Shown here piece by piece: positions 8,133 to 42,354 of a stretch of 64,000 bases of DNA. The stretch lies in NCBI GenBank assembly GCA_046563655.1, contig CM102286.1:15376001-15440000 (forward strand), read 5' to 3'. This DNA comes from Yuukianura sp. NJ FZ-2021 (lineage: Eukaryota). How positions within the stretch are numbered: the stretch's first letter is position 1; every line of letters starts with the position of its first letter. The notes beneath the pieces are model-generated. The model did no database searches. It saw only the letters and a program-made list of their open reading frames with translations, and had not been told where the DNA came from. The translations under genes were made by a program, and so were the position numbers.

Positions 8133-9023
8133 ATGAGTAAGGTGAATCCGGACACCGTTATCGCAGGTATTCGACTAGGGGACCTGGCCATTCCACCAAT
8201 GACAATGTCTCAAGCGCAATCAATGGGGTTTCCATCCAATCGGAGCAGATCACTTGCCCAAACGACAGCTAGAATTCTCGAAAATAAGCGGAAACTGGAG
8301 AGTGTGTCTACTAGAACGGACGGTGGAAACGCATTACTACACAATAGATTGCAGCGTGACATCATTCGAATCACAAACTTTAACTTCCACACAAACAATG
8401 ACGACTGGTACAAACAATCCCCTACTTTCGATTCGGACGTTATTACCATCACCTTTGCTAACGAACCCCTACAAGAAAAATACCGGAGGGACTTGACTAT
8501 AAGGCCCCCTGCTTATATTACCAAAGATAAACATGATGTTCCAGTGAATGCTTACGTGCCGGCGGAGAAAGGAATTCAAGGACTACCGCTAATTCAAATC
8601 AGAAAATTCATCGACGTATTTGACGCAGAACAAAGGCAAAAAGTGGAGGAGGCTCCAATGATTTCATGGATGAAGTTTGAGCAACAAGTAGAAGCTCTTG
8701 TGAACATGGAGCAATACGACGAAAATAAGCGAAAAGAGGAAATCAAACTACAGGAAGAGGCCATGAAATGTTCTCAATCACACAGAGTTCAACTCAAGCC
8801 ATCTGCCCAAGCTGCAAAGCAAAAAGCAATTAAAGAACGCAAGAGGATTGCCGCAGAAGCCCGCTATCGTTCCCCTAGTCCTGGACATTCAGATCTTTTC
8901 CCTCCGCCAGTCAAGCGGATGAACATTTCAAACACCGGTCCTTACGATTTTCCTGTTCCTCCGAATCCAGTAACAACACCTTCGAGCACTGATGTTTCAG
9001 GTCCAAAAATGTTAAATGATTAG
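8133..9023 (+). CDS. Hypothetical 296 aa protein, single coding exon
   Basis: Long ATG ORF directly after a splice acceptor (ttttag at ~8131), suggesting a 5' UTR intron. Charged coiled region and Pro-rich tail. Confidence 0.7.
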   Translation: MSKVNPDTVIAGIRLGDLAIPPMTMSQAQSMGFPSNRSRSLAQTTARILENKRKLESVSTRTDGGNALLHNRLQRDIIRITNFNFHTNNDDWYKQSPTFDSDVITITFANEPLQEKYRRDLTIRPPAYITKDKHDVPVNAYVPAEKGIQGLPLIQIRKFIDVFDAEQRQKVEEAPMISWMKFEQQVEALVNMEQYDENKRKEEIKLQEEAMKCSQSHRVQLKPSAQAAKQKAIKERKRIAAEARYRSPSPGHSDLFPPPVKRMNISNTGPYDFPVPPNPVTTPSSTDVSGPKMLND

Positions 9024-9352: not shown

Positions 9353-11261
9353 TTATGCTCCCACCAATTTTCCGGACCGAAGTCTTTTTGTGATGCACAC
9401 AGTGTGTCCAGAGTCACTTTCTTCATCACTTTCTTCTTTTTCCAGTTCATATTGCTCCATTTGTTTTGAACACCGCAGTCCAGAACAGTTAGTCCAAGCA
9501 TTATCCGACCTGTAAAATATTTCATAACTATAGTTAATAACAATGATGTCTGTTCTCGTAACAGTTTTGGGTCACATACTCAGCGTATCCCAGCCACTTG
9601 ACAAGGTAAAGGGTTTGTCCATCAACCACTTTGTCATCCAAAATCAGTTCCACTTGATATTCCTCGTGTTTTTCAAATTTTGCATTAGAAATGTCTATTT
9701 GATGGTGGAAAACGTCAATGGGTTCCAAGTGATCAATAAATATATTACTGCCATCAACCGTGAAGAAGACTGAGCGCTTTATGTGTTCCATAATTGACTT
9801 GAATTCCAAGAAAAGTTCAATCTCTGCTCGACAACTTGGTACTCCTTCCACGTAAACATCTTTGTAGACTGGAAAGTTTCTCAGAATTCGGCTATACGCG
9901 GAAATGGCAGAGAGTACGCAGGATGACTTCAAGCTAAATTTTTTCAAAAGCAATGTCAAGTTTCAATATTCTAATTGACTTAAAAGTTACATTATCTCAC
10001 CAAGATAAATTTACATGTTCTGTCTTGAACATGGGATGCTTTCCGTATTTGTTATCCAATTTGGACTTCAAATATTTTCTGACGTACTTGATACTTTTCT
10101 CCCTTTTTGTAATATTCCTGTATCCAGAGTTGTTCCAAACAGTATTGAAGTATGTGAATGTCCATCCACTTCGTTTTCTTGCGACGACAATTACCGCGCA
10201 ATGGTCAAAGAGATTTTGTAGATTGGTAGCCTCAGGATATGTCACGATATGGAATAGGATAATTTTTCCTGGGACTTGGCTCGGTAGTTGAGAATATAAA
10301 GAGTGTATTGTGGATTTCTTTATAGCGCTTTTCACGTAAGATACGAATTGCGATGCCAAAGGTTCAACTTGCAAGTTCTCCAGGTAGGCCTCCAGTACTG
10401 CAGTGTATACTCCCCACCTTGTCTTTTCACTATAAATCAAACAAATTCACACAGATTTGAATTTTAGTGTATCATGGAAAAGTATTGCCATATTAGATTA
10501 TTCAACTCTTAACTATTTTCACTCACACCAACATTTGAAGCTTAGTAGAGAAAATTGCCTACGAAGGATTTTTGAAACATCTTTACCATTTTGTTCCAAT
10601 TACACTAGTGTACCATGGAAAAGTATTGCCATATCGGGCTATTCTACTTTGAAGCTTAGTTGAGAAAATTGCCTACGAGGGATTTTTGAAATGTTGCCAC
10701 TATTTTATTCCTAGTACACTAGTGTATCATGGAAAAGTATTGCCATATCGGGCTATTCTACTTTGAAGCTTAGTTGAGAAAATTGCCTACGAGGGATTTT
10801 TGAAATGTTGCCACTATTTTATTCCTAGTACACTAGTGTATCATGAAAAAGTATTGCCATATCGGGCTATTCTACTTTGAAGCTTAGTTGAGAAAATTGC
10901 CTACGAGGGATTTTTGAAATGTTGCCACTATTTTATTCCTAGTACACTAGTGTATCATGAAAAAGTATTGCCATATCGGGCTATTCTACTTTGAAGCTTA
11001 GTTGAGAAAATTGCCTACGAGGGATTTTTGAAATGTTGCCACTATTTTATTCCTAGTACACTAGTGTATCATGAAAAAGTATTGCCATATCGGGCTATTC
11101 AACTTTGAAGCTTAGTTGAGAAAATTGCCTACGACGAATTTTTGAAATGTTGCCACTATTGTATTCCTAGTACACTAGTGTATCATGAAAAAGTATTACC
11201 ATATCGGGCTTTTCAACTTTTACCTATTGTCACTTCCAGTAACATTTGAAACTTTGAACAT
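9353..11261 (-). CDS. Chromodomain protein with a putative N-terminal cysteine-protease-like domain
   Basis: Exons 11261-11224, 10428-~9999, ~9932-9580, ~9509-9353 splice in frame. C-terminus EEYQVELILDDKVVDGQTLYLVKWLGYAE|SDNAWT is a canonical chromodomain. Intron 1 holds the 114-bp array. Confidence 0.75.
10465..11222. repeat. 114-bp tandem repeat array (copy B, ~6 units), intronic
   Basis: Same unit and orientation as 2101-2720 (gtgtatcatggaaaagtattgccatatcgggctattc...). Confidence 0.95.
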
Positions 11262-11391: not shown

Positions 11392-14300
11392 TTAATTATT
11401 TGTTGCCCAGTAGGATGACCATTTACTGGAGTTGACGGTCTGGCCGTGTCTGCAATACAAACAAGTTTTCGAAGATCATGAATCTAGCGGTAAACAAACA
11501 GTTTTGAGTAGTAGTACATACACGTTTCTTAGGTCTTCCAGAAGCCTTTTTCGTTTTGGTAGCAACAACCTTCTGCCTAGCCGGTCTATCACGGCCCCGA
11601 CTGGTAGCTCCACCAACGTTTCGCCCTTGAAATAATAATTTTACATGATTGCACAAAAATTTAGGAAATTAATTTAGGTTGATATATTATCATCGCTTAC
11701 AACCTAGCAACGTTTACATACTTCTTTATCAAAATTTAATATTAACCTGTGCCATTTCCCCTGCGCCGTGGTGCGACCGCCTTCGCCTTGCGTTTTCGCC
11801 CTGTTCATAAATATACGTTTCCTAAAATCTCGTTCTTCTTTCATTCAAATAGTTTTTAGATTATCTTACGCTGCTGTAAAGGTCGGCCAGCAAGGCTTGA
11901 CGGTCCAGCAGCTTCAAACTCCTGGCGGCGAAACACCGGTTCCACTGGTGGATTCTCAACATTATTGTCAAGTACTAGCATACGAAAAATGTCGAAATAA
12001 TTAATGTTTACTTTACTGTTATTAGGGTTAGTTAACATACGTTCTGCTCTGTGTCCGCCTAAATCGCCTCTTCGTTGTGGAATTACCACTCGCTCCAGTC
12101 GCAATACAACTAAAAAACCAACACAAATTTATAAACCTTGGAAATGCTTACTTTGACGAAACGAGATTACACGGTCGTATTAGATTACCTTCTTTGTCGA
12201 TTCTTGGTCTTTTGGAAGTTCCTAAGTTTACAACAAAATACTTTGGTTAATCTATGATAGGTTTTTTCTAGCTAATCTTACGCTTCTTTGGAGGTGCTGC
12301 TTCTCCGGAGACTCGTTGCAGATTTATCATCACTGAAATAATGCAAGAACCTAGGTACTTATCTTTTGAAACAAAAAATTTAAATAAAAGTAAATTTATA
12401 CCTTGTTTGGGGCATAGTTGCATCAGCTCTATATTTTGAATAAGAAAATAATTTGTAGTTACTCAACACACAGTTATAATTATTCTTTGCTTACCCTGTT
12501 CCTTGCGACGTTGTCCCCTCTTAGTTGGTGTTGATCTACAATCAAAACTAGCATTAACCTTTTTCACTTGCAGGAGTAAATAACAAAGTTAGGAACAAAC
12601 AAAAATTTCAGGCTTGAAATGCAACGCATTTCATGTACATGGACTTTTGCCAAAAAACCAACAAAACTCAAAACAACATATAAATTTGAAGAAACATTGG
12701 TAATTCTTTGCCAAAATCGTTGCAATACAGGTACTTTGATACAATTACAAGGGGTTCAAATGTGAACCGTTTGACTTTAGTCAGGCAAAGCATTTCCCAA
12801 CAAACAAACAATGATACAACGATTATCGATGATTCAGGTTAATATCGATAATATTGACTCGGTGTATAACAAATCCCATCACTTGTAATTTTCCTATTAA
12901 TTAAACTTGAATTAGCTTTCAACATTTGATTTTGTGAATAAAATCACTAATGTCAAATCCATATACCAAACACAATCTCTATGCACAATTCTAAAATTGT
13001 AGCACGCGTACCTTTTTTGCTTGGGAACGCCTGAAGAACTAGGCTGCGACGAGCCTTCTCCAGCAGGCAAAGCAAATGCGACTCTAAATTAAATACACAA
13101 AACAATCAGCACTTATATCACTCTCCAGAACAAGATTACACGTAGCCTTTGTTTCCAACGCTCCATTTTTTAATATGTAACCCAACCCGTTCTAACTTTA
13201 CCTTTTACTCGGAATGGTAAAATGAGACATGATTGCTTACCTCTTTTGTGGGGCCGCGGTTGGTGACCTAAACAACATTATATAAATTATATTTTTCGCT
13301 AAATTATGTAATCCTGCGGTAGGAGTATTTTGAATTCATTCTTCAAGTTTCAATCAATAAAAATTTAGTTTTACCGTATTGCTCTTCTACGAAACCTTCT
13401 AGGAATGAGAGGCGCATCTTCCTCAGAACTTCCAAAAATAAAACCAATGTTTGTTAAATATTTTACTACAGCAGTCACCTATCATTCTTATTAAGGAATT
13501 GCTAAAAATCGAATAATTAAAAAATTAGCAGTAACATACCTAGGCATCGCCCGTTCGTGGACTGTGAAAAGAAATTCAAAAATAAAACATTATTCATTTG
13601 ACTGCCACATTCTCTTAAACATACCTAGTCTTTGACCAGCAGGCAACAAATCCAAAGCAGCAATAAAGTCAGCCGGCGGGGCTTCAACCTCTAACCTATG
13701 GCCACCTACCAAAACCGCGACTTGTTCTACTATTCCTGTTTCCAAAAAAATACATTATTATGAAACGATTTTATGATTTACAACAAAAAATATTACCTCG
13801 CTCTCCACCTCCTCCCTCCACAACACCACCTTCCACAACTGCCTCATCGCTTGCCACTTCTGTTTCCAAAAAAATACATTATTATGAAACGATTTTATGA
13901 TTTACAACAAAAAATATTACCTTGCTCTCCACCTCCTCCCTCCACAACACCACCTTCCACAACTGCCTCATCGCTTGCCACTTCTGTTTCCAAAAAAATA
14001 CATTATTATGAAACGATTTTATGATTTACAACAAAAAATATTACCTTGCTCTCCACCTCCTCCCTCCACAACACCACCTTCCACAACTGCCTCATCGCTT
14101 GCCACTTCTGTTTCCAAAAAAATACATTATTATGAAACGATTTTATGATTTACAACAAAAAATATTACCTTGCTCTCCACCTCCTCCCTCAACAATACCA
14201 CCTTCCACAACTGCCTCATCGCTTGCCACTTCTGTTTCCAAAAAAATACATTATTATGAAACGATTTTATGATTTACAACAAAAAATATTACCTTGCTCT

Positions 14301-15355
14301 CCACCTCCTCCCTCCACAACACCACCTTCCACAACTGCCTCATCGCTTGCCACTTCTGTTTCCAAAAAAATACATTATTATGAAACGATTTTATGATTTA
14401 CAACAAAAAATATTACCTTGCTCTCCACCTCCTCCCTCCACAACACCACCTTCCACAACTGCCTCATCGCTTGCCACTTCTGTTTCCAAAAAAATACATT
14501 ATTATGAAACGATTTTATGATTTACAACAAAAAATATTACCTTGCTCTCCACCTCCTCCCTCCACAACACCACCTTCCACAACTGCCTCATCGCTTGCCA
14601 CTTCTGTTTCCAAAAAAATACATTATTATGAAACGATTTTATGATTTACAACAAAAAATATTACCTTGCTCTCCACCTCCTCCCTCCACAACACCACCTT
14701 CCACAACTGCCTCATCGCTTGCCACTTCTGTTTCCAAAAAAATACATTATTATGAAACGATTTTATGATTTACAACAAAAAATATTACCTTGCTCTCCAC
14801 CTCCTCCCTCCACAACACCACCTTCCACAACTGCCTCATCGCTTGCCACTTCTGTTTCCAAAAAAAATACATTATTATGAAACGATTTTATGATTTACAA
14901 CAAAAAATATTACCTTGCTCTCCACCTCCTCCCTCCACAACACCACCTTCCACAACTGCCTCATCGCTTGCCACTTCTGTTTCCAAAAAAATACATTATT
15001 ATGAAACGATTTTATGATTTACAACAAAAAATATTACCTTGCTCTCCACCTCCTCCCTCCACAACACCACCTTCCACAACTGCCTCATCGCTTGCCACTT
15101 CTGTTTCCAAAAAAATAAATTATTTTTAAACAATTTACAATACAAACATTATTACCGTCTCCTGCAGCCTCTTCCACCCTAAGAATTCCGCCAACAACTT
15201 CTACTTCATCCTCCTCTCCTCCTGTTCCCAAAAACAACATATATTATTATTATTACACAATTTCATGGTATGTTATGCTAATATTCTAACCAGCAATAAT
15301 CTCATTCACAACCAGAACTTCATCGACAACTTCCATTGGGCTTACACCATCATCT
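11392..15355 (-). CDS. Low-complexity protein encoded by many micro-exons, including 11 tandem 63-bp exons (start not resolved, probably near 15990)
   Basis: Minus-strand GT-AG exons at 15355-15291, 15221-15156, 11 x 63 bp (15100-13797), 13735-13625, then 20-110 bp exons down to ...GHPTGQQNN* (TAA 11394-11392), followed by AATAAA at ~11370. Confidence 0.7.
13736..15115 (-). repeat. 124-bp tandem repeat x11 = 63-bp exon + 61-bp intron
   Basis: Units at 13797, 13921, 14045 ... 15038. The minus strand reads gtaatatt...ggaaacag|aa gtg gca agc gat gag ... gag caa g. Confidence 0.95.
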
Positions 15356-16096
15356 CTGAAATTAAAACAAAAAAAATTTATAACCTAACCTAACTGAATA
15401 TAGCCCTAATTTGAAAAAGTGGATATCCAAGTCAGTCAAACTAACGATTAATTAGGCATTCCACTTTCATACTGTTTCATACTTTTAAAATTCTTTCAAA
15501 CATTAAAGTCGATTCGTTTAAATATATTTCAGTTAGGAAATTAAAATTCTGCATAGGCTTATATGAAACAAACCATTCCGCCAATTGACTCACTAATAAG
15601 TGAATTTGTTCCCAAATAAAAGTTTTCTAGAACAACATAATTTGGAACATTATATTTTAAATTAAATTGTCCAAAATTATATTGTCTTTCAGTTCTACTT
15701 TCACTTTTCTGAATATCCAATGGAAGAAATGGGCTTCCGCGTCGGATCATATAAAAAATCAAAAATGATTCACGAGATTGAAAAATAATTAATTGAAAAA
15801 TTTCAATATTTTCCACGACACCATTTGTTTCACTTTATACTTAGAATATTTAGTCATCCATTAATTTTTTACAACAGTAACATTCAATTTACTCAATTCA
15901 ATACAATAACTGAGCATTATGTTATGCAAATCGAAATGCGAAAAATTAATTCCTTTACATTTAACCATTTCGTCCAATTTCTTCCATTGAATATCCAGTT
16001 GTAGCTGAAAAGTCGAGAGTTTAAATCCAACAAATCTCCCTCTGAGTCAATGTCTCACGGACTCAGCGAAACGTCTTGTAACCATATTTGGTAATT

Positions 16097-16626
16097 GAGA
16101 GAGGCCACTCAAATAGGAGCGCCCCGCGACTCCAAAAAATTCCACTACAACGTTCAAAAAAAGTAAACCAATTCCGTTTCATATGAACTCCGCTCCGCTC
16201 CTAGCGGTAATAAAACTTTAATGACCGCTCAATTGTCTCGCTCTTACATAGAAAAAGTGTTTGGAGCTTATTCATCAAAAAACTTATTCGTTCATCTTCC
16301 CAAAAAAAAAAAACAAAAAAGAAGTGCTCAAGACCGATCCCAGCCTCCGATCCCCATTTTTCCATCAAAATTCAGCTCCCGCTCCTCCGATCCCCCACCT
16401 TTTTCGCCCACCTATCGCTACCGCTCCACCGATCCCAGATTTTTCAGCCCACCCCTCTGCTGTTCCGATCCCCGATATTTCCAAGCGAGCCTCCGCTCCT
16501 CTGAACCACATTAATGCGAGCGGAGATCGGGGATTGAACAGATCGGGGAGCGGGGATTGAAAAGTGCCGAGCTTTGCAAACCGCTCCTTTATTTTTTCAT
16601 TGCTCTCACAAGAGCGGCTCTCTCTC
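16097..16626. mobile_element. Non-autonomous DNA transposon, Sola-like (GAG termini, AATT TSD)
   Basis: aatt|gagagaggccactc ... gagcggctctctc|aatt, with internal cgctcc/ccgatccc subrepeats in both orientations. Confidence 0.55.
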
Positions 16627-17167
16627 AATTCCCACTTTCATTTTTCAACGTTTAGAAATTCTTTAACGAACCTTTCCACCTTTGTACGGGCTACTCAGGT
16701 TCCACACCAATCCACACAATTTTTAATTTTAATTTGCGTAGAAACCTACACCAAATATTATAAACTTAACCTACATCTAATCAAATTAACAGTTACATAA
16801 AAACATTAATAAAGCACTAAATCTAAAGTTAAAATTATACATAATAATTACAGTTTAGATATTAAAATATAAAAAAAAACCAACTAATTGACTTTGACTA
16901 ATTAATTGATCCCTCAACACTTAATGTTCCAATTTGTTCTTTGGGCTTGCAGGGCCGTGGTGTAGATATGCGATGCTTTGGGTGGGCTGTTAGTGGCCTA
17001 TTCCACACTTCGCCATGTATTCTCCATTCAGACGAATCCCAATCACTTCCGAATCTCAGTCACAGTCTTCATTCATCTGAAAAAAACAACAAAAACTTAG
17101 GTTTACCTTTTAGCTAAAAGTAGGTAAGGTTAGGTCCACAAATTCATGAGTAATTGGATGGACTTAC

Positions 17168-17277
17168 TTCTTATCAAAGGCATGTGTCTGCACAAGGCGG
17201 TGGTTGAGTACAATGTCTACTCCACTCTCCACTCCGGACTCTGCTCCCTCATGTTCCTGCGATAGATTTGACCCAAC
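17168..17277 (-). pseudogene. Tctp: TCTP (translationally controlled tumour protein) exon fragment
   Basis: Minus-strand translation VGSNLSQEHEGAESGVESGVDIVLNHRLVQTHAFDKK matches the TCTP signature (VESGVDIVLNHRL). Ends at a gtaagt donor. Confidence 0.8.
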
Positions 17278-17329
17278 ATAAATTCAAAAATTATACATTG
17301 TTTGTTTTTCTAATTTTTTTTTAAAACCT

Positions 17330-20068
17330 ACTTTACGATCCAGCGAGTCGATTTTTTCTGCAATACTTCGGATAGTTAGAACTGGAGGCTGCGAAAGATC
17401 AACTTCTGCTTGTTCTTTGAACATTTTGGCTTTCCATTCCTGCGTTTCCTTCACAACTTTGCCCAGAGCGGACAATTCAACTTCCGTAAAGTACTGGAGA
17501 TCTTCTGGTAACTTTTTAGAACTATCCAGGAAAGTCGTGCTCAGATTCAGCATTTGTTCATGAGCTTCTAAAGCATCCGGTCTCTCCTTGTGTTCTCTCA
17601 CACGGTCCATAAAGTCTTTGGTCAAAGACGGACTTTTCAGCTTCAAATCCATCTTCATAGAGCCAGTCGGAAGTCTGAAAACAAAAATTTTTGTATATTT
17701 GTTATCTTAGATTTTTATATCCAAAATTACCTCTGAGCAAAAAGCGGCAATTTTCTCTTTCTCTTGTTCAGTCAAAAACATTTCAAAGTCGGGAGAAGTC
17801 GTTTTGTCCTGCATGTCCGAAACGAAGCTTTCCAGTGAATTTCTTGCTTTTTCTCGCAGCGCCTTAGCCTTGTCAATTTCATCCAAATTCTTCAACCTAT
17901 TTCAAAAAAGTACATCACTAAAATTGTCGAATTTCAGTACATTTTTGAAAATTGAAAGTACTTTTGTGCCGAGGTTTGAAACTTCTCTCCTTGGAGTGGC
18001 AGTACATCGAGCATGGACGTCTCGACGTCAATCGCTTCCTTGATCACGACCAACTTGGATTTCTTTTCAGTGACCTTGTCCTTCTCGGGCGCTTTTGACT
18101 CGTTCTTAGCTCCATCTACTTTGTCTTCTCCAGTTTTAGCTTTCGAATCGGTTTCAGTGTCATTGTCTTTGCTTCCTTCCTCTTACTTTCCTCACTTCCA
18201 GCATTCTCAGACTGTTCACTGCTCTCTCCGTCTTTAGGCTCAGTTTGTGCCGGAATTTCATCTCCACTTCCTGAAAAACGAACAGTTTCAATCAAAATCT
18301 AAGTCAAATACTTAATTTTACCGCTCATTTCGAAACTAACCTGAAAACAACTTGCTAAAAGCTGATCCCAGTTTAGAAAGTGTGTCCTCTTCTGGAGCGG
18401 CAACTGTTTCCACGGTTGCGTTCTTTTCAAATACAGATTCGACTAGAGTGAGACTGATGATTCCGTTTTCGTCCAAATTGAAATGTGCTTTGACTCCTTC
18501 CACTTCAATACCATCGCCGATATTCTTCTGCAGTGCTGCTCCAACTCCTTTCATATTCACCTTGGTAATATTAGGACTTCCGATGGCACTAAAAATAACA
18601 AAATCAAAATCAGCTGATATTTAAATTAACAACTTCAAAGTGAATCTTACTTGGCTTCGTGTGCTGGGACTTGTAACTCGCCGTAGCTGACGTAGAAGCT
18701 AAAGTCGTCAACATGCTTGTTGAATGTCAAGATCTTCTGCGAATAAGGATTCATGTAAGAAAAGAGAGTTCGACGAACAATCTTGACTGGTCGGGCGGCT
18801 TCGTCTTCTCCTTTCAGTTCCCGCTCAAAATCGAACTGCAAAAGAAACAGTTCATGAGTTGTGACTAATTTCAGCGATTTGTGTTAAACTTTCAGCGATT
18901 TGTTTTAAAAACTTACCAAAATGGGAAAGAGAACAGCATCTTTGGTCAAGAACTTTTTGACTTTGAATCCAGAGCTCAGATCAGCTGCTTTGTGAACGGC
19001 ACCCATCGCCGCTGCCTCGTCCGTATTCAGACTCTTTCCCAATTCTCGTTTCAAAACTTCAGTCAGTTTCTCTTGGACTTTGGGTTAGTAAAAACATCAG
19101 TTTTGGTCTTCTTTAAGTCGTTGAAAGCCTTGCCCAGAACATCTCTCAATCGAAGTTGCATTTCCAGACCTCCGAGTGTTCGATCGTATCTGAAACGAAA
19201 GGAATCAGCTGATCAACTTATTTCTAAAAACACGCTGTTCGCAGTGTAATTTCAAATTCTAGACTTACCCAACACCAAGAATCGTCAACTGTGGATTAGT
19301 TTCTACTACTCCCTTCTCCTTAGTTTTGGTCATCTGATAGCTGATTACTGTAGCCACTGTACTAGATGCTCCCATGTCATACAAAAGAAGGCGCTGCGGA
19401 GTCTCGTTGAAGTCTTTTCAACAAAAAATACAATAGTTCAAAGCACCTAACAACATTCAAGTGTATTAAAAACGACATTCCGACGAATAAAATTATCAAA
19501 ATTCAAATATTTTGTGAGAGATTACTGACCGTGGTTGCGTTTATGAGCTGGAGAACCTTGATATCCGCCAATTCGGCTGCGTGCAGAACTGCTCGTCTTT
19601 CGGCCTGGTTGAAATAAGGTGGAACGGTGATGACTGCTTCCTTAACTGGTTGACTGGCAAACTCTTGAGCATAGTCACGAGCTTGGCTTAGAATCATTCC
19701 AAGGAGTTCTTCAGGCGAATAAAACGTTTCACTGCAAACAGATGAAACAGTAATTAATAATTAATCATCAATCAGCTGTTATCGGTTTAAGTTACGGTAC
19801 CTGTCATGTTGAAAAAGAACTGTCCCACGCTCAGGGTCAGGAACTAAGTTGTACTAAGGAAATCTCTTTTGATAAAGCTCTACAATTGGATTATCAATCT
19901 TTTTTCCCAAGAGATCCAAGTAGTAAATGTAACCATTGGATGGGAAACGAACTGCTACGTTCAGTGCATCTTCCCCAATCAGTCGCTCATTGTCACGGAA
20001 CGATACTGCAACTGGTGTCTTCCGCATTGACTCCTTATTCAAAACGATTTCCATGGGCACTCCTGGCT
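17330..20068 (-). pseudogene. HYOU1: HYOU1/Grp170 (ER Hsp70-family) pseudogene, truncated at both ends
   Basis: [21 protein letters not shown]..., VITVPPYFNQAERRA, KAHFNLDENGII, DWLYEDG...RVREHKERP. In-frame TAG at 19854-19856, missing ATPase exons near 19.1 kb, frameshift after ..AEKSVF (~17620). No signal-peptide exon and no KDEL tail. Confidence 0.88.
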
Positions 20069-20185
20069 ATAATAAAACGTATTAAGAGTCCAGCATCCTC
20101 CTCCCCTTGTCCACTTCATCCGCAACTCCTGTTTTCAAATTAACAACTAAAATGGGATTTAGAAACTTCAATTAAGATCTCTTAC

Positions 20186-20708
20186 CCGATTTTTGGATTG
20201 TGTTTCCTGGGATTCGTTACTGTAGTGCATTTGGAAAAGAGTTTCTTCACATCCTCTCTAGTCGCATCTGCATGAATGTTCGTCACGTAGAGACAAAATG
20301 GGTCAATGTGCTCAGGGTTATTCGTCACACGCGTGTCACTGTCCAGTTTCTTCTCCACTTTAGAATAAAAACAAAGTTAGATAACTATCAACCCAAGCAA
20401 AGAAATAAAGATACTTGGATGTTTTAGAATGAACTGGAAGTGTTTACTTACGGTGATATTTGAACCAGCGAATTTGACTTTCTTCAACACCTCCACTCCC
20501 TTCTTATGGATTGGGTCCACTTTCGACACCACTGGCTCCATTGGAACTTTTAAAAGTGAGTGGAGGAGCAGAGTTACAAACAGAAAACAATCAATTACTA
20601 ATCGAACAACTGACTTAATCTTATGATGGACACTTCACTTACGCTGGTTTAGTTGCAATTGATCTCCTCTTCTCCTCGGGTTCATCCCTTCGTACCCTAT
20701 TCTCTACC
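20186..20708 (-). pseudogene. Internal fragment (3 exons) of an RRM-containing RNA-binding protein gene
   Basis: Exon 20358-20186 translates EKKLDSDTRVTNNPEHIDPFCLYVTNIHADATREDVKKLFSKC (RNP2-like LYVTNI). The preceding exon ends like an RRM C-terminus (VEVLKKVKFAGSNITV). Confidence 0.6.
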
Positions 20709-20769
20709 CTGTAAAAACAAAACCAATTCAAAAATCATTTGGATTCAATCAGCTGTTGAGGTTAAGTTA

Positions 20770-21613
20770 CCCGGGTAAGAGCGATAGGCTCCTGGTCAGT
20801 TGTCCAGAACGAATATGGAGCTGAGGTCATGGGAAATTTTGGACAGATCCTTCGTGTAGGAACCCAAGTCAAGAGTGCAGTGTTGACGGTAGTATCTCGT
20901 CTCCAGTATCCTCCTCCCCTTGTCCACTTCATCCGCAACTCCTGTTTTCAAATTAACAACTTAATTAACTTTATCCTGCTTACAAATTCCACTTTAAATC
21001 CGAATTTAATTTTGAATAAACATACCCGCACCGTAGATCTCCATTGAGGCAGTGAACACGACCAACTCGAACCATTTGGAAACCTACGCAAAGGAAATCA
21101 TTTGTTATCATGCATGTTGTCTTTATGCATTAAAACTTACGACATCCAGGAAGTAGTCGACGTGTGGTCGTTTGTGGACGAAAAACCGAACTGGGTGTCG
21201 CTCAGTCGTCACCTTGAGTATAAAGTCAGCAGGTGCCTCTGGCTTAACGCTTTCCCTAAACAAAGTAGAGATTGATGAAGATGACAATTAAAGGTACGAG
21301 TTCCAGACATTACCTTTGAATTCCATTGTGATGAGAATGGATGAGTGTTTCGTCCACATCCAGTGCAAGCACTTTCCTCCGAACAGCTGACTTTGGATAA
21401 AGGCGACAATGAAATCTCCTCATACTTGACTGCCTCATGCTGAATAATCTAAAAACAATGGAAATAGAGGAGTCAATTAAACAATGTGTTTGGATTTGGT
21501 TCATTTTGGTGCCTTACCTTTTATTGCGTTCTTCTTCATGAAGTAGGTGAGGCAGTTCCAAATCCTGTTAAAAGTATGAGATGTCCAATGGCCACTTCCG
21601 CATATTTCCACAT
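20770..21613 (-). pseudogene. CTDNEP1: CTDNEP1/Dullard phosphatase pseudogene copy 1
   Basis: MWKYAEVA..., [32 protein letters not shown]. 8-bp deletion before the DxDxT motif, in-frame TGA at 20798-20796, last exon missing. Confidence 0.9.
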
Positions 21614-22114
21614 CGCAATGTCAATCTCCAGAAGAAAAGACGATACCACGACCTAACCTGAAAAAACACTTAACCTAACAAACTTAACTAACTTAACTAA
21701 AATTTACATTAAAAATACCCATGCACACATCACACACGCACGTCCAATCGCTTAATTAACTAAAAACTAACTTAACTAACTATAACTTAACCTTAACATA
21801 ATAATAATATTACCCAGCATCTTCTTGGCCCGACATCCTTCCTTTTTCTTTGCTTTTGAAGCTTTAATTAACCAATTAATTAAACAAATTTCCTAAAACC
21901 ACGCTCTCTTCACCGACTCTCACTCCAAACCAAATCCAAAGTTTTTGCAAAAGTACCGTTTTGTAAAAAAAAAAAACAACAGTGAAACTTTGGGCGACTA
22001 AAGACCGGAATTAGCGGATTCATCCGCATCGTAGACGTTTAAGTGTCGCGGTCTTGAATTTGCATGAAAACTCGCACGATGAAATCAGTTTACTTAAAAA
22101 TGTTTAACCTAACC

Positions 22115-23150
22115 TTATTTCGCGCGTAAAAACGCGCGTTGAATTATGTCGCGTGAAAAATTTCACGTCTAAACCATTTCGCGTAAACAAAGGCACAAAT
22201 TAACTCTATTCGCGCGTAAAAACGCGAGTTGAATTATGTCGCGTCAAAAATTTCACGTCTAAACCATTTCGCGTAAACAAAGGCGCAAATTAATTCTATT
22301 CGCGCGTAAAAACTCGCGTTAAATTATTTAGCGTCAAAATTTCACGTTTAACGCATTTCGCGTGAATAAAGGCACAAATTAATTCAGTTCGCGCGTGAAA
22401 AAGTGCGTTAAATTATTTAGCGTCAAAATTTCACGTCTAAACCATTTCGCGTGAATAAAGGCACAAATTAATTCAGTTCGCGCGTGAAAAAGCGCGTTGA
22501 ATTATGTCGCGTAAAAAATTTCACGTCTAAACCATTTCGCGTAAACAAAGGCGCAAATTAATTCTATTCGCGCGTAAAAACTCGCGTTAAATTATTTAGC
22601 GTCAAAATTTCACGTTTAACGCATTTCGCGTGAATAAAGGCACAAATTAATTCAGTTCGCGCGTGAAAAAGTGCGTTAAATTATTTAGCGTCAAAATTTC
22701 ACGTCTAAACCATTTCGCGTGAATAAAGGCACAAATTAATTCAGTTCGCGCGTGAAAAAGCGCGTTGAATTATGTCGCGTAAAAAATTTCACGTCTAAAC
22801 CATTTCGCGTAAACAAAGGCGCAAATTAATTCTATTCGCGCGTAAAAACTCGCGTTAAATTATTTAGCGTCAAAATTTCACGTTTAACGCATTTCGCGTG
22901 AATAAAGGCACAAATTAATTCAGTTCGCGCGTGAAAAAGTGCGTTAAATTATTTAGCGTCAAAATTTCACGTCTAAACCATTTCGCGTGAATAAAGGCAC
23001 AAATTAATTCAGTTCGCGCGTGAAAAAGCGCGTTAAATTATTTAGCGTAAAAATTTCACGTTTAAAGCACTTCACGTGAATAAAGGCGCAAATTAATTCT
23101 ATTCGCGCGTGAGAAAGCGCGTTAAATTATTTAGCGTAAAAAAGGCGCGT
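22115..23150. repeat. CpG-rich 89/90-bp tandem repeat with 268-bp higher-order unit
   Basis: gcgtaaacaa/gcgtgaataa recurs at 22181, 22271, 22360, 22449, 22539...; the 90+89+89 = 268 bp unit repeats. Confidence 0.9.
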
Positions 23151-23856
23151 AGAATTAAAACTACGCAAAAAATTTCATTACAAATGTGCGTTTGAATTAA
23201 CTCAATCCTTTTTCAACTAATCATAAAGTCGCAAACACAAATGACGGGACGTTCGCCGTGTACGAGTATTAGTCGCTCCTATTTGCCTAACAGCTGCGCT
23301 TTAAAAGTGTAAATCGCCGCACCAAACGGTAATATACGAACTTCAATAATATTGTAATAAATAAGCAAAAATGCATTCTTATCCTTTGGTTTTAGGCAAA
23401 ATATTTTAAATTCAGCTTTTATTCATACATTTACTTTTTGCATTAATCATTTTTGACTAAGTTTTGTTCAATTTTTGTTATAAATTCGGCACGCGTATTG
23501 CGCCGCACCTTGAAAACACGGTTGTGTCTGAAAGTTGTATTGGTTGGAATGAGTTTGTACAAACACCGATGTATCCACCATGCGGTGGCTATGCTACGCG
23601 TCTATTTATGTTGCCACTTTAGCCTGTTATTTTTTAAATTAAATTGGTTAAAATTGTTGCCACTACGTTCAGTAGCTAAACTATACCCACAGGGCATGTA
23701 GGGATTGGTTACACTGTGAGACTACAACGATTGTCATTAACCTTTAGTTCAACCCGAAATTGCAAAATCACAACTTTGTTTTTAAAAATTCATGGACCAA
23801 ATTCTGACGACGCCGAAGAAAAGTTGTTAAAAAATCAACAATTTAACTTTTTAATT

Positions 23857-26800
23857 ATGGAAAACGAGAGAGACGGAAGTCGGCTCATGCCAATACACGA
23901 TTACTTGGCCCTCCAGAATCTACGGAAGGAGTGCGAGGTAACTCAGCATTAGTTTCATTACCCAATTAACCAACCCCCACTAACTGCCGAATTCTCTACT
24001 TTTCAGCAAGCCACAGCGAAGTCCAAGTACGATCAACTAGCGAAAGAAGCCAAGCGGGCTGACAAGGAGGACTTGACAAACAAGTTTACATGTGCAGGAG
24101 AGAGGTAAAGTGCAAAATTAGTAGCTATGGCTTTAGGGAATAGGTTCGGATAATAACGATTGTTTTGGTTTCCAGTTATGCTCAGATGAACCAGCGTGTG
24201 TCTCAGGAGAGAAGAGAAGAAAAGGTCAAGGAGGAAATCTTGTCCAATTTGACGATGGAGGGGCCTGGACTCAATGGGCAGAAGTTTGTAGTTTTCAATT
24301 CCATCAACGTGTGTGAGGTCGGGTATCCTCCTGATTCGGAGTTTCTGCCATCGGAACTGGCCATTGGATCATTCAGTATTGCTACTGGACACATTTCAAA
24401 CTACCACACTCTCGTTGACATCGGTGAGCTCATCTAATATTTAACATTTACGCTCCGTTTCATCCAAAACCTAATTTGCTTTTATATTCCTGTGACTAGT
24501 GAACATTCCACTGGGACATGAAGCTCAGGCGAAAGATAACTTCGTAGCTACAGCTCTGCCGTGTCCCGGCTCACACAGGTTTAAGCCTGCACACCGCAAC
24601 TACTTCAAAATTCTGCAAAATCTGAAGAGATTCATTCAATCGGTATGTGAGGAATCTCCTCCGTCTTACTTAATCAAGGATTGAATCTTGATCCTAAATC
24701 CTTATTTGTTACCTCCATAACTTTCACTTTGGTTTCCAGTATGTGACTCCAGTGCACGGGTTTTACCCAGTCTTCATCAAACCAGACAATGACAAACCAG
24801 TGGACGAACAAGTTCTCAAGTGGATGGTGAAGGAATCTAGACGTAAGGCAACTCTTCTTTTTTCCCCAACTCATTTCACATGCTTACAAAATTTTGGTTT
24901 TTGACAGGGATTGGGCCATATGATGGATTTGACAGTGAGGCTGAGAACGAGTTGTACGATTTTTTCAATTACTTGAAGTTTCTGAAAGTGACAAAGTTGC
25001 TGCTTCGACTGCGCGGAGTAGCCCGTGAGCGATGCCCAACTTTCCGTTCTCACGTTGCTAGTTTCAACTACTTGGAGAATCCGGCAGATCATGTGCTCAG
25101 TGCGGGAGTGTACGATTGTTTTCCCAACACCACTTGCTCCTATCACAATTTGGTAAGCCCTCTACTTTACACTTCCACTTGAAACGAAGTCTCATTTTTT
25201 GTAATTTAGAGTACGAAGGGCACTGAGTCCATGAAGATGAATCGGTGCTGCCTAAACATCGTGTTGCGCACAATCTTCGTCATCTTGAGAGACGTAATGC
25301 CAGGGATGAATGTGCAGACGATCATGAGCCACACACCACAACAGTCCATCAACCCTCAACCGCCGTTTCAACCTGAGGCCAAAGTTCCGGAAAGTGAGCC
25401 GAAACGACACATACGCAGCGAAGTAAGTAGGGTTGTTCATGTTCCGGTGCCAGAAACGGAACGGAACTTATTTCCGGTGTCGTTTCGTTCCGTTTCTATA
25501 TTTTTTGGAAACGTACTTTCGTTTCAATTAATTTTTTTGAATTTCGCGCTGAATTTTTAAATATATTCCGTCCACTTAAAGTTTCATCCATTTCGTCCAG
25601 TGGATATCCAGTGGAAGTGGCAATTAAGGCACTGGACGTTTAAGCATATGCCTCCATTGTATAAAACCCAACTTTTTTTGAAATTATAGGAACTAAAAAG
25701 GAAATTGCCCCACGACAATTCACTGTACCGGATACCACTAAAGCGATTCCGTTTCCCGGAGATTAGGGATGAGAAGGTGAAATGTGCAATGGAAGACATG
25801 GCATGTCAAGCAGTCAGCGTAAGTAACTACAAAGTAACATAAAAGTTTGAACTTAATTTCAAAAACAACATCTAGACAACATAATACCTACATTTCATAA
25901 TTTTTAGAACGTTTTAATGCAATAGGGAGTTTGCGTTTTCCGGAGGTTATAGAATTTATGGACTTTATAGAAGTTATGCAGGCAAATGACGTCACTTTCA
26001 TTCATCACGTGGTTAAAATTTGAAATTCTATAAATTTGGAGCCAACATTTTGCGCTAAATTTGACCAAACCAAAATTTATAGAATTTATCTACTTTATAG
26101 GATTTATCTATCCAAATGACGTCCCTTCAGCCGGTCACATGGTACTTTTCCAACTTATGTCAGTTATAGATCAAGTCTATAAAGTGCGCCTTTATAGAAA
26201 TTACAGACTTAAGTTCTATAATTTCTATAAAGCCAGTCTACGCAAACTGTACAAAAGTTGAAAATTATAGAAATACTTTAGTTCTATAAATTCTATAACT
26301 TTTTTCTGACATTTATTACGCAAACTCCCTAATATCACACCTCAAATTTCTGATAAATTTTTTTTAGACAAAAAACCTCTGTACGCTGAGACAACTTCAG
26401 GAAAACGTTTTAAAAGAGTTACAAGAGCAGCGAAAGAACGATTTGGCTAATGGTTTGGCGGATTCAAGCAAAGAATCTAAAAGAAAAGATCGAAATTTGA
26501 GAAAAGCAGCCAAACAAACTCTTACAAGTTTGAAACTACTCATTTCGTAAGTTGGAATTCAAACCTTTTTTTAATTTTCGCAAAGTTTTATTTTTGATTT
26601 TTTTTTTAATTTCGTGATATATTCGTAATTTCTTCCATCCACTAAAAGTTTCATCCATTTTGGCTGCATTTCTTCCAGTTGATATCCAGTACAAGTGGCA
26701 ATTAACCCACTGGCCATTTCATTGTCCAGCAACACTATTTCTCATTAATTCTTTGATTTATTCCAGGGGCCCAGTGGAGGAGGATCTCTGGCTACCAGAG

Positions 26801-27093: not shown

Positions 27094-27587
27094 ATGATTT
27101 CCCGTTTGATGCCCCTCGCTCGCTATTTCCTTCCGACATATTCCAATTTCTCCTCAATTTAGTCACATCACGAATTTGGGAAATTCTTTAACTTCCGCTG
27201 CTAGTAGTAGAAGCGTCGTGCCTCAAAAACCGCATACCCCTGTCATACCCCTGTCATGCTTAGTGAAGTTATGACTTACTTAAATCCAAAACCAGGTAAA
27301 CTTCCTGTCCCTTCTTCCGACGTTTACTTTGTTTTTAATTTTGAGTACTAATTGGTCTTATTCTTACTTAGGCCAAACCATTGTGGACATGATATTTGGC
27401 GCCGGTGGACATACAGAAGCTATACTCAAGGCCACCTCTCATGTCAAAGTCATTGCGGTCGACAGAGACCCCTTTGCCTTTGATTTCGCCCAACATCTGA
27501 GTTGAAAGTATCCCAATCAACAAGTTCCTCTTTTGAGTCGCTTCAGTGAAGTTTTGGAACAACTCAAGTTTCTCAATTTTAATCCAG
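27094..27587 (+). pseudogene. METTL15: METTL15/RsmH (mitochondrial 12S rRNA m4C methyltransferase) 5' fragment
   Basis: HTPVMLSEVMTYLNPKPG|QTIVDMIFGAGGHTEAIL..VIAVDRDPFA = RsmH SAM-binding motif. 11-bp duplication (catacccctgt x2), in-frame TGA at ~27503, gene ends after exon 2. Confidence 0.85.
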
Positions 27588-29871: not shown

Positions 29872-30941
29872 TCACCAGGAAGGTCGATGGACGTGCAGAT
29901 TTCGACTCAGAACACTGCGCACATCTTGAGTGAATCTCAAGGCGTCTAATACTGGAAGGAGGTTGAGGAGGGCCGTGTCAGTAGCATCTGTGAACCAGGA
30001 TTTGATGGGCATTGCATTGGCTACAGACACAAACAACTAGTTAGTCAAGTAAATCATTTGGAGTCAATCAGCTGTTGAGGTTAAGTTACCCGGGTAAGAG
30101 CGATAGGCTCCTGGTCAGTTGTCCAGAATAAATATGGAGCTAAGGTCATGGGAAATGTTGGACAAATCCTTCGTGTAGGAACCCAAGTCAAGAGTGCAGT
30201 GTTGACGGTAGTATCTCGTCTCCAGTATCCTCCTCCCCTTGTCCACTTCATCCGCAACTCCTGTTTTCAAATTAACAACTTAATTAACTTTATCCTGCTT
30301 ACAAATTCCACTTTAAATCCGAATTTAATTTTGAATAAACATACCCGCACCGTAGATCTCCATTGAGGCAGTGAACACGACCAACTCGAACCATTTGGAA
30401 ACCTACGCAAAGGAATTCATTTGTTATCATGCATGTTGTCTTTATGCATTAAAACTTACGACATCCAGGAAGTAGTCGACGTGTGGTCGTTTGTGGACGA
30501 AAAACCGAACTGGGTGTCGCTCTATCGTCACTTTGAGTATAAACTCCGGAGGTGTCTCTGGCTTAACGCTTTCCCTAAACAAAGTAGAGATTGATGAAGA
30601 TGACAATTAAAGGTACGAGTTCCAGACATTACCTTTGAATTGCATCGTGATGAGAATGGATGAGTGTTTCGTCCACATCCAGTGCAAGTACTTTCCTCCG
30701 AACAGCTGACAGCCTGTGTTTGGATAAAGGTGACAATGGAATCTCCTCACACTTGACTGCCTCATGCTGAATAATCTAAAAACAATGGAAACAGAGGAGT
30801 TAGAGGAGTCAATTAAACAATGTGTTTGGATTTGGTTCATTTTGGTGCTTTACCTTCCTTGCGTTCTTCTTCATGAAGTACAGTTCCAAATCCTGTTAAA
30901 AGTATGAGATGTGTAATGGCCACTTCCGTCTATTTCCACAT
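29872..30941 (-). pseudogene. CTDNEP1: CTDNEP1/Dullard pseudogene copy 2 (full length, multiply disabled)
   Basis: Keeps the last exon [45 protein letters not shown] at codon 4, deletion near 30880, TGA at 30117-30115. Confidence 0.92.
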
Positions 30942-31429
30942 CGCAAGGTCAATCTCCAAAAGAAAGGACGATACGTGTGGAAGTCCAATCAAACGTTGGT
31001 CCTTGGAGTGTTGATCTGGAGAAAGAAGATTCCAAACTATGAGAATAATCGATGACCAAATGACTGGATTCCAGTCAACTGCTTTTACTTGACTTTAATT
31101 GTGTTGTTCCTTACCTTAACCTTTGAAAAATGTTTGATCCAGCTTCAGTTCGTTGTTGTGCTGGTTGTAGATTAACTAAAACTCAGTTAATCGGTTTAAT
31201 TAATTAGTTAATCGTGAACTTTGCACTGTAAGAAGGAAGAAATGAACAAAACAACTGAAATCTTTAATTTTTAAAAGTAAATCAGCTGGCGCATGCGCGA
31301 ACTCGCAATAACAAAATTGAAAATTTTGAGTAGAGGTCGGCGCCTCGCACTTCACAGCCACAACAACTGCAAAGCAGCATTAATTAAATTAATTACTTAA
31401 TTACTCTTTAATTAAAGCATATAAAACTC

Positions 31430-34330: not shown

Positions 34331-34704
34331 TACTCTTTAACTAAACGTTGTAAAATCAATCCTGACGTTCAATCCTGTATATACATGTTTCAAATAGATA
34401 ACCTAATTTCAAATTAAATTAAATTAAATTTTAATTAAATTAAATTATATTTTGTATATGTTTATTTCAGCATTAGACACAACTCTGCCTTGTGCTTGAG
34501 ACAAAAGTCCGCCAAATCTTTTGAATTCTTCAAAAAGATTTTAAAACAAAAGTTCAAACAAAAAAATCACAGAATCAGAAGGCATTACACGACGACGAAA
34601 TTAATTAATTGAGGGAGTGAGGTTGATTAATTGTGATTGGTTAATTAGTTGGATAATGAAAAGTGAGTTAAGTTTGGATTGGTCAAAGGTCAGTGAGTGG
34701 AGCA

Positions 34705-36214: not shown

Positions 36215-36471
36215 TACTTTCAAACGACAAACAACCTGGATCGTCTCTCCTAATTTACGTAGTACTTACTATTTACTCTGTAAATAAAAATTCAGCTTCC
36301 CAGCATTGGATCTCCTACACTCCCATGTATTAAAAGCGAATACGAGTATTAATTTGTGAAACTAACGATGCTTTATCATCGAAAGAAAAAAACAAATTTT
36401 TAGTTAATTACGGTTAGAATTAATTGAAGTCTGTTGGTGTTTGGATTTTATTTTCAAAAAGAAAAATTGGC

Positions 36472-37303
36472 CTAGGCTCCTGGTCAGTTGTCCAGAAGAA
36501 ACATGTTGGACAGATCCCTCGTGTAGGAACCAAAGTGGAGAGTGCAGTGTTGTCGCTAGTATCTCGTCTCCAGCATCCTCCTATCCTTCTCCCCTTGTCC
36601 ACTTCATCCCCAACTCCTGTTTTCAAATTAACAACTTAATTAACTTTATCCTACTTACAAATTCCACTTTAAATCCGAATTTAATTTTGAATAAACATAC
36701 CTGCACCGTAGATGTCCATTGAGGCAGTGAACACGACCAACTCGAACCATTTGGAAACCTACGCAAAGGAATTCATTTGTTATCATGCATGTTGTCTTTA
36801 TGCATTAAAACTTACGACATCCAGGAAGTAGTCGACGTGTGGTCGTTTGTGGACAAAAAACCGAACTGGATGCCGCTCAATCGTTATTTTGAGTATAAAG
36901 TCCGGAGGTGTCCCTGGCTTAACGGTTTGCCTAAACAACGTAGAGATTGATGGAGATGACAATTAACTAATAATTATTAAAAGTACGAGTTCCAGACAGT
37001 ACCTTTGAACTCCATCGTGATGAGAATGGATGAGTGTTTCGTCCAGGTCCAGTACGAGTACTTTCCTCCGAACGACTGACAGCCTATGTTTAGATAAAGG
37101 TGACAATGGGATCTCCTCATACTTGACTGCTTGATGTTGAATAATCTAAAACAGTGGAAATGGGGCAGTCAATTGCACAATGTGCTTGGATTTGGTTGCC
37201 TTACCTTCCTTGCGTTCTTCTTCATGAAATAGGTGAGGCAGTTCCAAATTCTGTTGAGAAAAAGTAGGACATGTCTAATGGCCACTTCCGCATATTTCCA
37301 CAT
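36472..37303 (-). pseudogene. CTDNEP1: CTDNEP1/Dullard pseudogene copy 3 (3' truncated)
   Basis: Intact N-half with [17 protein letters not shown], indels at ~36500 and ~36580, TGA at 36486-36484, last exon absent. Confidence 0.9.
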
Positions 37304-37629
37304 CGCAAGGTCAATCTCCAGAAGAAAGGACGATACGTGTGGAAGTCCAATCAAACGTTGGTCCTTGGAGTGTGGATCTGGAGAAAGAAGAGCCCAAACT
37401 ATGAGAATAATCGATGACCAAATGACTGGATTCCAGTCAACTACTTATACTTGACTTTATGCCTAACTTTTTTTCCAACTTTAAACTTTGAACAGTGGAA
37501 CTTTCCTATTCCCTATGTTACAATATACAAATGTGGACTAATTCCAGAGAGACTCCTGAGAGTGGAGCCAAGAGGGGGACTTAAGGGATACAAAATAAAG
37601 ATGGTTAGATGCTTACTGGAGTTGGAGTG

Positions 37630-42120: not shown

Positions 42121-42354
42121 GAATCGTATTGTAAAGGCTGGGGGGCAAGCCCCCCAGACCCCCCCACCTTTTGGTTTCTGTGTTGAGATGGAATTTGTGG
42201 AAGTCTGTGCTTGGAGAAGTAATGTAAAAGGGACACCCCAGGATCGTTCCACTCCTCCAAGCAGAGAGAGTTTTTTGCACATATAGTTTGCATGGTCATG
42301 CTGTTAACATTGGGACATACGGAGTGGTCGTCAATTCGAGTATGATTCCCAGAC

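Follow-up and report, generated by a model that had tools for sequence, protein, structure and literature searches.

In Drosophila, Su(Ste) and AT-chX are tandem repeats of gene fragments that give rise to small RNAs against their parent genes, and Sdic originated from two unrelated neighbouring genes. Helitron transposons begin with 5'-TC and end with CTRR-3', and a short palindrome precedes the 3' end by a few nucleotides (PMC4778049). Helitrons insert between a host A and T at many dispersed sites and do not duplicate the target. Pack-MULE, Pack-CACTA, and similar gene-carrying elements have terminal inverted repeats and a flanking target-site duplication. Complex insertions of the fork stalling and template switching (FoSTeS) or microhomology-mediated break-induced replication (MMBIR) type have been described (PMC5120786, PMC6258378). 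Here we describe a mosaic of gene fragments on the minus strand of a 64,000-nucleotide stretch of Yuukianura sp. NJ FZ-2021 (GenBank assembly GCA_046563655.1, contig CM102286.1, positions 15,376,001 to 15,440,000), which is called the window and is numbered from its first letter. The mosaic runs from 21646 down to approximately 16895 and combines pieces of a CTDNEP1-type phosphatase pseudogene, an RRM-protein gene, HYOU1, and TCTP. It is not a working gene, and we read it as an unusually clear record of DNA repair shuffling and amplifying gene pieces.

The mosaic has features in common with each of these systems. With Su(Ste) and AT-chX it would share an array organization in which exon-plus-intron fragments have homology to genes present in single copy, as a functional analogy only. 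Sdic of Drosophila melanogaster is similar in being a DNA-level chimera with tandem repetition and apparently variable copy number between samples, but Sdic is expressed, functional, and protein-coding, whereas the mosaic lacks an open reading frame (PMC7475035). Helitron capture in maize (PMC3288121) and by the bat elements Helraiser and HelibatN3 (PMC4778049) likewise yields co-oriented, intron-bearing fragments with retained splice sites in multiple copies; in contrast, neither 5'-TC/CTRR-3' ends nor a 3' hairpin nor a RepHel gene was found in the window, and the copies apparently lie head to tail, joined at microhomology. Clustered junctions, a short insertion templated nearby, copy-number gain, and an 8-bp microhomology (here at the one joint with both partners visible) are shared with FoSTeS/MMBIR-type insertions (PMC5120786, PMC6258378). 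The mosaic differs from these in being a fixed germline structure of at least four genes that was then amplified many-fold, with intron-biased breakpoints. In the excerpts of springtail Helitron and genome literature consulted, no report on gene-fragment capture or amplification was found. The locus preserves an unamplified mosaic layout, the microhomology of a reiteration, and several hybrid introns together, and it could be a worked example of how repair-driven shuffling leads to spliceable multi-gene chimeras and to tandem repeats seeded from genic DNA.

In gene sense, the mosaic consists of CTDNEP1 exons 1-5, RRM exons, a 63-bp CTDNEP1 scrap, HYOU1, a single TCTP exon, and an exon-like tail (Table 1). 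Apart from the tail, this order and the single orientation had been given in a preliminary description of the DNA, and Pfam, tblastn, and reading of the sequence confirm both, with all pieces on the minus strand. The tail, hybrid introns 2 and 3, and CTDNEP1 copy 3 are additions to that description. The RRM fragment has exon-like blocks at 20643-20708, 20452-20546, and 20186-20357; a weak Pfam RRM_1 match at 20376-20185 (E 0.001) covers the start of the domain, and the fragment aligns with a 449-residue relative at about residues 222-295. The parent gene is predicted to encode a protein some 450 residues long that has an acidic tail, and the 5' 66-nt block (20643-20708) is of uncertain origin. 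The scrap, previously reported as 60 bp at 20087-20148, is real, and its limits are corrected in Table 1. It is 96.8% identical over 63 bp to a source 813 bp upstream (E 5.6e-24) and contains about 20 nt of CTDNEP1 intron tail and the first 41 nt of exon 5, ending at GCTGGA.

The HYOU1 piece is the largest. Full-length HYOU1 proteins placed residues ~58-890 of 962 at 20066-17305 by tblastn, and the fragment starts 23 nt within an intron. Its closest named relatives are from the springtails Allacma fusca (74%) and Orchesella cincta (69%), as measured with an 85-residue query, which makes a springtail or related arthropod the probable source, and a search for longer proteins with the open reading frame (ORF) of the HYOU1 C-terminus gave no match. 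The TCTP match (17283-17167, E 4.2e-5) is at the curated Pfam cut-off and covers profile positions 44-82 of 164. The tail has neither a Pfam nor an Atlas match from 17076 to about 16895, and Rfam at the gathering threshold had no match in 15000-24000. Upstream of copy 1, single-copy DNA contains an ATG at 21836-21834 with a GT donor eight codons later (21812-21836), and an acceptor at 21658-21659 lies immediately ahead of the start of CTDNEP1 homology. A foreign first exon or promoter may feed the mosaic from there.

The splice signals of the mosaic are intact. All 18 modelled introns have GT..AG ends and pyrimidine-rich tails, as the preliminary description had claimed for splice-site retention, and three of the 18 are hybrids of two genes. 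Hybrid intron 1 had been placed at 20709-20769; it is real and extends to 20770, as the alignment of CTDNEP1 copies 1 and 2 indicates. The two copies (copy 2 from 30051 onward) are alike through ...CAGCTGATTGA(A/C)TCCAAATGATTT and unrelated beyond, so that the likeness ends at ...AAATGATTT and the breakpoint is near 20732/20733. The HYOU1 and TCTP exons flanking hybrid intron 3 join in frame, and this intron is spanned by exact contigs from three of the sequencing runs described below (X1, X5, and X2). From these splice signals, a chimeric spliced non-coding transcript is possible. An origin as a processed (retro)pseudogene was considered and is ruled out by retention of all 18 introns, which excludes retroposition.

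A short motif, CAGCTGAT, is also enriched. It occurs 10 times in the window compared to 1.08 expected, none of 100 shuffles reached 10, and it is present twice within the palindrome ATCAGCTGAT. Sites include 18609-18618, 19204-19213, 19771-19778, 20748-20755, 30067-30074, 31281-31288, and 39340-39347. Three HYOU1 introns contain the motif, as do the CTDNEP1 intron of copies 1 and 2 and the blocks that copies 2 and 3 share upstream, and it is positioned approximately 25-35 nt ahead of acceptors. The motif resembles an E-box-type core-promoter motif of flies.

Disabling lesions occur in both of the larger pieces. In CTDNEP1 copy 1, exons 1 and 2 are frameshifted and a TGA interrupts the reading frame (LDN*PGAY). 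HYOU1 has two stops (TAG in KRFP*YN near 19855 and TGA in IFC*KDF near 19425) and at least two frameshifts (within 18300-17940 and near 17640), and residues 1-57, 313-396, and 891-962 are absent. The gap at residues 313-396 is a 504-bp deletion at 19082, where family contigs hold 504 extra letters (19081/19083) whose ends translate to ...RALAKLFKE and ILVGAGTRIP, which is Hsp70-type sequence; the deletion is private to the window copy. When the 18 introns are removed in silico, the conceptual spliced RNA is 3,458 nt, with a longest stop-free stretch of 251 codons. The stops, frameshifts, 504-bp deletion, and short open stretch show that the mosaic is dead and encodes no protein, and any transcript of it would be non-coding. 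Like the anatomy, these lesions are read directly from the assembled DNA.

Two more CTDNEP1 pseudogene copies are present in the window, and the three lie within 17 kb with differing flanks. Homology of copy 1 to both others starts at 21646, with 94.1% identity to 30051-30974 (copy 2) and 85.5% to 36473-37336 (copy 3). All three have the same TGA, which indicates descent from a single, already dead copy. In addition, copy 2 has an early stop after MWK, and copy 3, which is cut short at about 36473, carries a frameshift and a deletion within exon 5. Differences between these dead copies are clustered and are more frequent in exons than in introns, which is the opposite of constraint or neutral decay: copies 1 and 2 differ at 27/600 exon and 3/307 intron sites (Fisher p = 0.005), and copies 1 and 3 at 51/572 and 13/258 (p = 0.07). 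CpG decay was dropped as an explanation for the excess exon divergence, since 26 polarised sites had no CpG or single-type bias; patchy gene conversion among many CTDNEP1 copies is our guess.

Copy number was assessed from public sequencing data. Two studies supply five DNA runs, and contigs from four of these were aligned to 15200-22100 at an 80% likeness threshold; X2 is from the independent study, and X1, X4, and X5 are runs of one sample, with X1 possibly from the source sample. The contig results given are among the best-supported of those listed, and a further 904 contig pieces and 147 loose ends stand beyond these. A finding new to this analysis is that 18.0-21.67 kb is part of a diverged multi-copy family, with single-copy flanks. 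Exact contigs on the flanks (15200-16900 and 21668-22100) have depths of 90 (X1), 13.2-14.8 (X2), 117-128 (X4), and 155-168 (X5), whereas individual diverged family contigs within 18.0-21.67 kb reach 1037.6 and 1048 (X2) and 1604-1738 (X5). Summed depth, which the tool itself warns is not copy number, rises over this region in all four runs and both studies; in three of the four it peaks at the CTDNEP1 exons, with up to 17426 against approximately 117 in the flank (X4). The preliminary description had raised multiple genomic copies of the chimera, and contig depth directly reveals that parts of it are multi-copy. The HYOU1 3' third, TCTP exon, and tail are near single-copy depth.

The family is diverse. 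Its contigs range from at least 99% to below 90% identity with the window, which indicates that the family is not young. Other family contigs depart from the window at 19609 (HYOU1 exon) and 20545 (RRM part), so the family holds further rearranged variants; contigs also end loosely at 20504 and 20545, and the sequence around 20505-20545 is different in other copies. On the left, the duplicated DNA has its edge at about 16880-16910, where the exact contigs listed end at 16909 in all four runs and an X2 contig begins at 16882. One X4 contig of single-copy depth (record 18) differs from the HYOU1 3' part of the window at 24/291 bases (~8%) and is probably the parent HYOU1 gene. For genome annotation, masking of the family is advisable, as its exons, if left unmasked, will be mistaken for fragmentary paralogues of CTDNEP1, HYOU1, or TCTP.

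Two kinds of back-joint that lead from the end of a repeated unit to its start were seen directly in the contigs. At joint 1, in gene sense, HYOU1 continues to 18127, nine letters (GCTGGAGAA) follow, and CTDNEP1 exon 5 resumes from 20906 onward. This joint was found in all four runs (depths 168.7, 31.9, 1727, and 1732). The octamer ACTGGAGA is present on both sides of it, and the octamer at 20900-20907 is at most 4 nt from the end of the scrap. Had the nine letters been given in gene sense, one further base would have matched and extended a flanking alignment; absence of this extension from both alignments suggests that the letters were reported on the plus strand. In that reading, two direct copies enclose an inverted copy of the heptamer, as expected of a fold-back; read in gene sense, the letters simply make the octamer triplicate. 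Joint 2 is in a 1,452-nt X2 contig (depth 1048) that reads 18772->18600, then 1,036 letters matching nothing in 15200-22100, then 20504->20265. A search at near lengths with the ORF across 18127, for family ORFs carrying the reiteration joint, gave no candidate.

A high-depth, unbranched contig from unit end to unit start implies a head-to-tail array or a high-copy circle, not dispersed transposon copies, whose contigs break into many flanks. Head-to-tail reiteration is the simplest reading of the contigs; the window itself holds one unit. The window copy passes both unit borders, with CTDNEP1 exons 1-4 upstream and HYOU1, TCTP, and the tail downstream, so it has the appearance of the unamplified layout, or of a sibling of that layout, rather than of one unit in an array. 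Depth of the two joint types differs approximately 30-fold between the studies, even though X2 is exact over kilobases of flank, and array composition therefore seems variable within the species.

Table 1. Positions of the mosaic pieces, joint sequences, other CTDNEP1 copies, and tandem repeats in the window.
Feature	Position	Strand	Evidence
CTDNEP1-type phosphatase pseudogene copy 1, exons 1-5	20771..21646	-	Pfam NIF in three exon ORFs, 21513-20799
Hybrid intron 1, CTDNEP1 donor half and foreign acceptor half	20709..20770	-	Copy 1/copy 2 alignment, GT..AG
RRM-protein gene fragment	20186..20708	-	Pfam RRM_1, phmmer (P0121 and others), tblastn
Hybrid intron 2, RRM-gene donor and last ~20 nt of CTDNEP1 intron	20129..20185	-	Alignment, GT..AG
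CTDNEP1 scrap, 63 bp	20089..20151	-	Direct copy of 20902-20964
HYOU1 (Hsp70-type) pseudogene fragment	17332..20088	-	Pfam HSP70 in three ORFs, 20066-18908; tblastn
Hybrid intron 3, HYOU1 donor and TCTP acceptor	17257..17331	-	Exon model, translation
TCTP single exon fragment	17168..17256	-	Pfam TCTP
Exon-like tail, ~180 nt, origin unassigned	16895..17076	-	Follows intact acceptor behind TCTP exon
Octamer ACTGGAGA, upstream side of joint 1, CTDNEP1 exon 5	20900..20907	-	Sequence check
Octamer ACTGGAGA, downstream side of joint 1, HYOU1 exon	18127..18134	-	Sequence check
CTDNEP1 pseudogene copy 2	29875..31097	-	Last exon kept (30036-29875); Pfam NIF profile positions 125-160
CTDNEP1 pseudogene copy 3	36423..37459	-	Adjoins apparently intact RING1-type gene
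25-bp satellite	42345-46305 and 50805-60800		
89-bp tandem array	22119-23142		
172/320-bp tandem array	31586-34357		
124-bp tandem array	13736-15136		
114-bp tandem arrays	2146-2717 and 10534-11220		

We favor, at slightly better than even odds (approximately 55%), an origin by serial template switching or by microhomology-mediated repair, with tandem amplification afterwards; mechanism, tandem arrangement, and order of events are what we infer. It is favored by the templated 63-bp insertion at a junction, the clustering of at least five junctions, and the 8-bp microhomology, evidence for which comes from joint 1. In a duplication-prone, satellite-rich region, the mosaic would have been put together from pieces of at least four genes that were copied as DNA, introns included. 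Synthesis would have jumped from an already dead CTDNEP1 copy into the RRM gene, returned 813 bp to CTDNEP1 to copy 63 bp, and moved on to HYOU1 and finally to TCTP. Later, an internal segment (RRM, scrap, and the HYOU1 5' two thirds) would have been reiterated head to tail elsewhere in the genome, with one variant including the 3' part of CTDNEP1 exon 5 and with one reiteration joint at the 8-bp identity common to both sites. The window copy would have kept the longer, unamplified layout and decayed further since.

Several points weigh against template switching or microhomology-mediated repair. Eight of nine classifiable parental breakpoints are in introns, which make up 27% of the stretch (binomial P = 2.2e-4), and plain repair does not predict such a bias unless AT-rich introns are favored. 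AT-rich introns (29% GC compared to 45%) may simply be better substrates; the bias may also stem from an intron-directed process or from selection that once favored a spliceable chimera. To our knowledge, a strong intron bias of breakpoints is not a described feature of replicative template switching. CTDNEP1 exon 5 breaks three times within 5 nt (scrap end at 20902, joint 1 at 20906, and a third contig type that leaves CTDNEP1 at 20906 for unrelated sequence), and this recurrent breakpoint looks site-specific, not random. Joint 1 is known for just 30-35 nt on its CTDNEP1 side and could be the right-hand end of a HYOU1 insertion in a CTDNEP1 exon. The depth ratio of family to flank varies among runs of one sample, from about 2x (X1) to about 10-15x (X4 and X5), and because it does so and depth is not copy number, our claim is limited to several to tens of copies. 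Finally, the circular intermediates of Helitrons are compatible with a closed unit (PMC4778049). If the intron bias and the recurrent exon breakpoint are genome-wide, they would bear on the mechanism of exon shuffling; both remain unexplained here.

Transposon capture, in which a non-autonomous Helitron or Pack-type element gathered and amplified the fragments and the window copy is an old, decayed member, is an unlikely explanation, though it accounts for much of what is seen. Several co-oriented, intron-bearing gene fragments in multiple copies are a Helitron-like trait, and the family is multi-copy with a range of divergence. Helitrons take up fragments stepwise and make chimeric spliced transcripts (PMC3288121, PMC4528327), and they form circles and transduce flanks by bypass of the 3' end (PMC4778049). 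The preliminary description had inferred either an active gene-fragment capture system, of a kind typical of Helitron or Pack-type capture, or a chimeric non-coding transcript. Its reading of DNA-level, intron-bearing, co-oriented pieces with splice signals stands, and the multiple copies that it proposed to look for exist; the Helitron or Pack-type attribution is not supported. No perfect hairpin of at least 6 bp located 2-15 nt from CTRR-T was found on either strand of 15000-24000, compared to a mean of 1.76 in 50 shuffles, and the family's true termini may lie outside the window copy. Inverted repeats in 12000-26000 comprise 16 weak pairs (18-31 nt, 71-89% complementary), none of which brackets 16895-21646. 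RepHel, helicase, and transposase families had no matches in a Pfam scan of the window's 47 long and 90 short ORFs. The edges of the window copy are a copy-specific breakpoint (21646) or lie at single-copy depth, which places the family termini outside view. High-depth contigs link the end of the unit back to its start, closing it without branching into dispersed flanks, and the sequence at the joint differs from A|T. Activity is unsupported: the window copy has many disabling lesions and an ~8% difference from the HYOU1 contig of single-copy depth.

Insertion of a HYOU1-containing segment at CTGGA in exon 5 of a CTDNEP1 pseudogene, with spread by reintegration of extrachromosomal circles or by unequal exchange between the numerous CTDNEP1 pseudogene copies, is improbable. 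Under this explanation, the scrap/HYOU1 junction of the window and the HYOU1/CTDNEP1 joint of the reads are two ends of one insertion. With the scrap ending at the equivalent of 20902 and the joint picking up again at 20906, CTGGA is found on either side, as in a short target duplication; summed CTDNEP1 depth is the highest of all bins in three of the four runs, and the three CTDNEP1 copies have different flanks. However, no CTDNEP1 sequence follows HYOU1 in the window copy, the X2 contig closes the unit without any part of a CTDNEP1 exon, and the nine extra joint letters, if inverted, fit fold-back template switching better than cut-and-paste.

About as doubtful is the idea that the composite unit is itself an amplifying entity, either a replicon of the rolling-circle or extrachromosomal-circle kind or a non-autonomous mobile element of a type not yet described, with joins aimed at introns and the exon 5 site and yielding small RNAs on the parent genes. 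If true, it would be an exon-shuffling machine, directing its joins to introns (8/9) and to the recurrent site in CTDNEP1 exon 5. Its arrays of fragments from essential genes (HYOU1, CTDNEP1, RRM, and TCTP) would yield small RNAs in the manner of Su(Ste).

It is quite improbable that the parent genes were neighbours in the same order and orientation, and that one segmental duplication followed by internal deletions formed the mosaic. A block common to copies 2 and 3 lies upstream of both (31184-31644 matches 39243-39703), and an apparently intact RING1-type gene with RING and RAWUL domains (37633-38871) stands between block and pseudogene in copy 3 only. Copy 2 compared to copy 3 thus represents loss of a whole gene between common blocks, and deletion within duplicated blocks does occur here. 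However, deletion alone cannot generate the out-of-order 63-bp scrap, and deletions would have needed intron positions eight times out of nine. Moreover, the genes downstream of CTDNEP1 copies 2 and 3 are other genes on the opposite strand, not RRM or HYOU1. As a separate observation, sequence like 39524-39703 makes up the 172/320-bp array at 31586-34357.

Mis-assembly of repeated fragments, suggested by the repeat-rich region, the absence of an exact contig across 20089-20770 among the contigs listed, and a position (20559) where the window's own letter has depth in X1 only (380.2 in total compared to 307 for the other letter), is very improbable, because exact X2 contigs with 0 differences over 16882-17914 span the HYOU1/TCTP/tail junctions, another exact contig of this independent study spans 18155-18733, an exact X5 contig spans 21646, the RRM-scrap-HYOU1 junction types are covered at high depth in both studies, and X1 and X2 contain 0.79 and 0.64 of the sampled words. 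Exact-pattern scans of metagenome contigs gave 0 matches for the scrap/HYOU1 junction and 0 for the CTDNEP1 stretch that includes the TGA and does not vary among the three copies.

The window is approximately 39% GC eukaryotic DNA with intron lengths of 56-96 nt, and tandem repeats are abundant in it. The 25-bp satellite totals about 14 kb, has higher-order periods of 50 and 75 bp, and produces artefactual long open frames on the minus strand. An ORF at 8103-9023 had no usable match in a protein atlas search. Two paralogous single-exon ORFs on the plus strand, 5067-6071 (334 aa) and 48449-49522 (357 aa), have no Pfam match and share 65.6% DNA identity over about 1.5 kb. Between the CTDNEP1 copies, Pfam fragments on the plus strand include Maelstrom (24144-24434, E 0.0017), an MraW-type methyltransferase (27284-27502, E 1.6e-7), and an acyltransferase C-terminus (35783-36211, E 5.5e-11).

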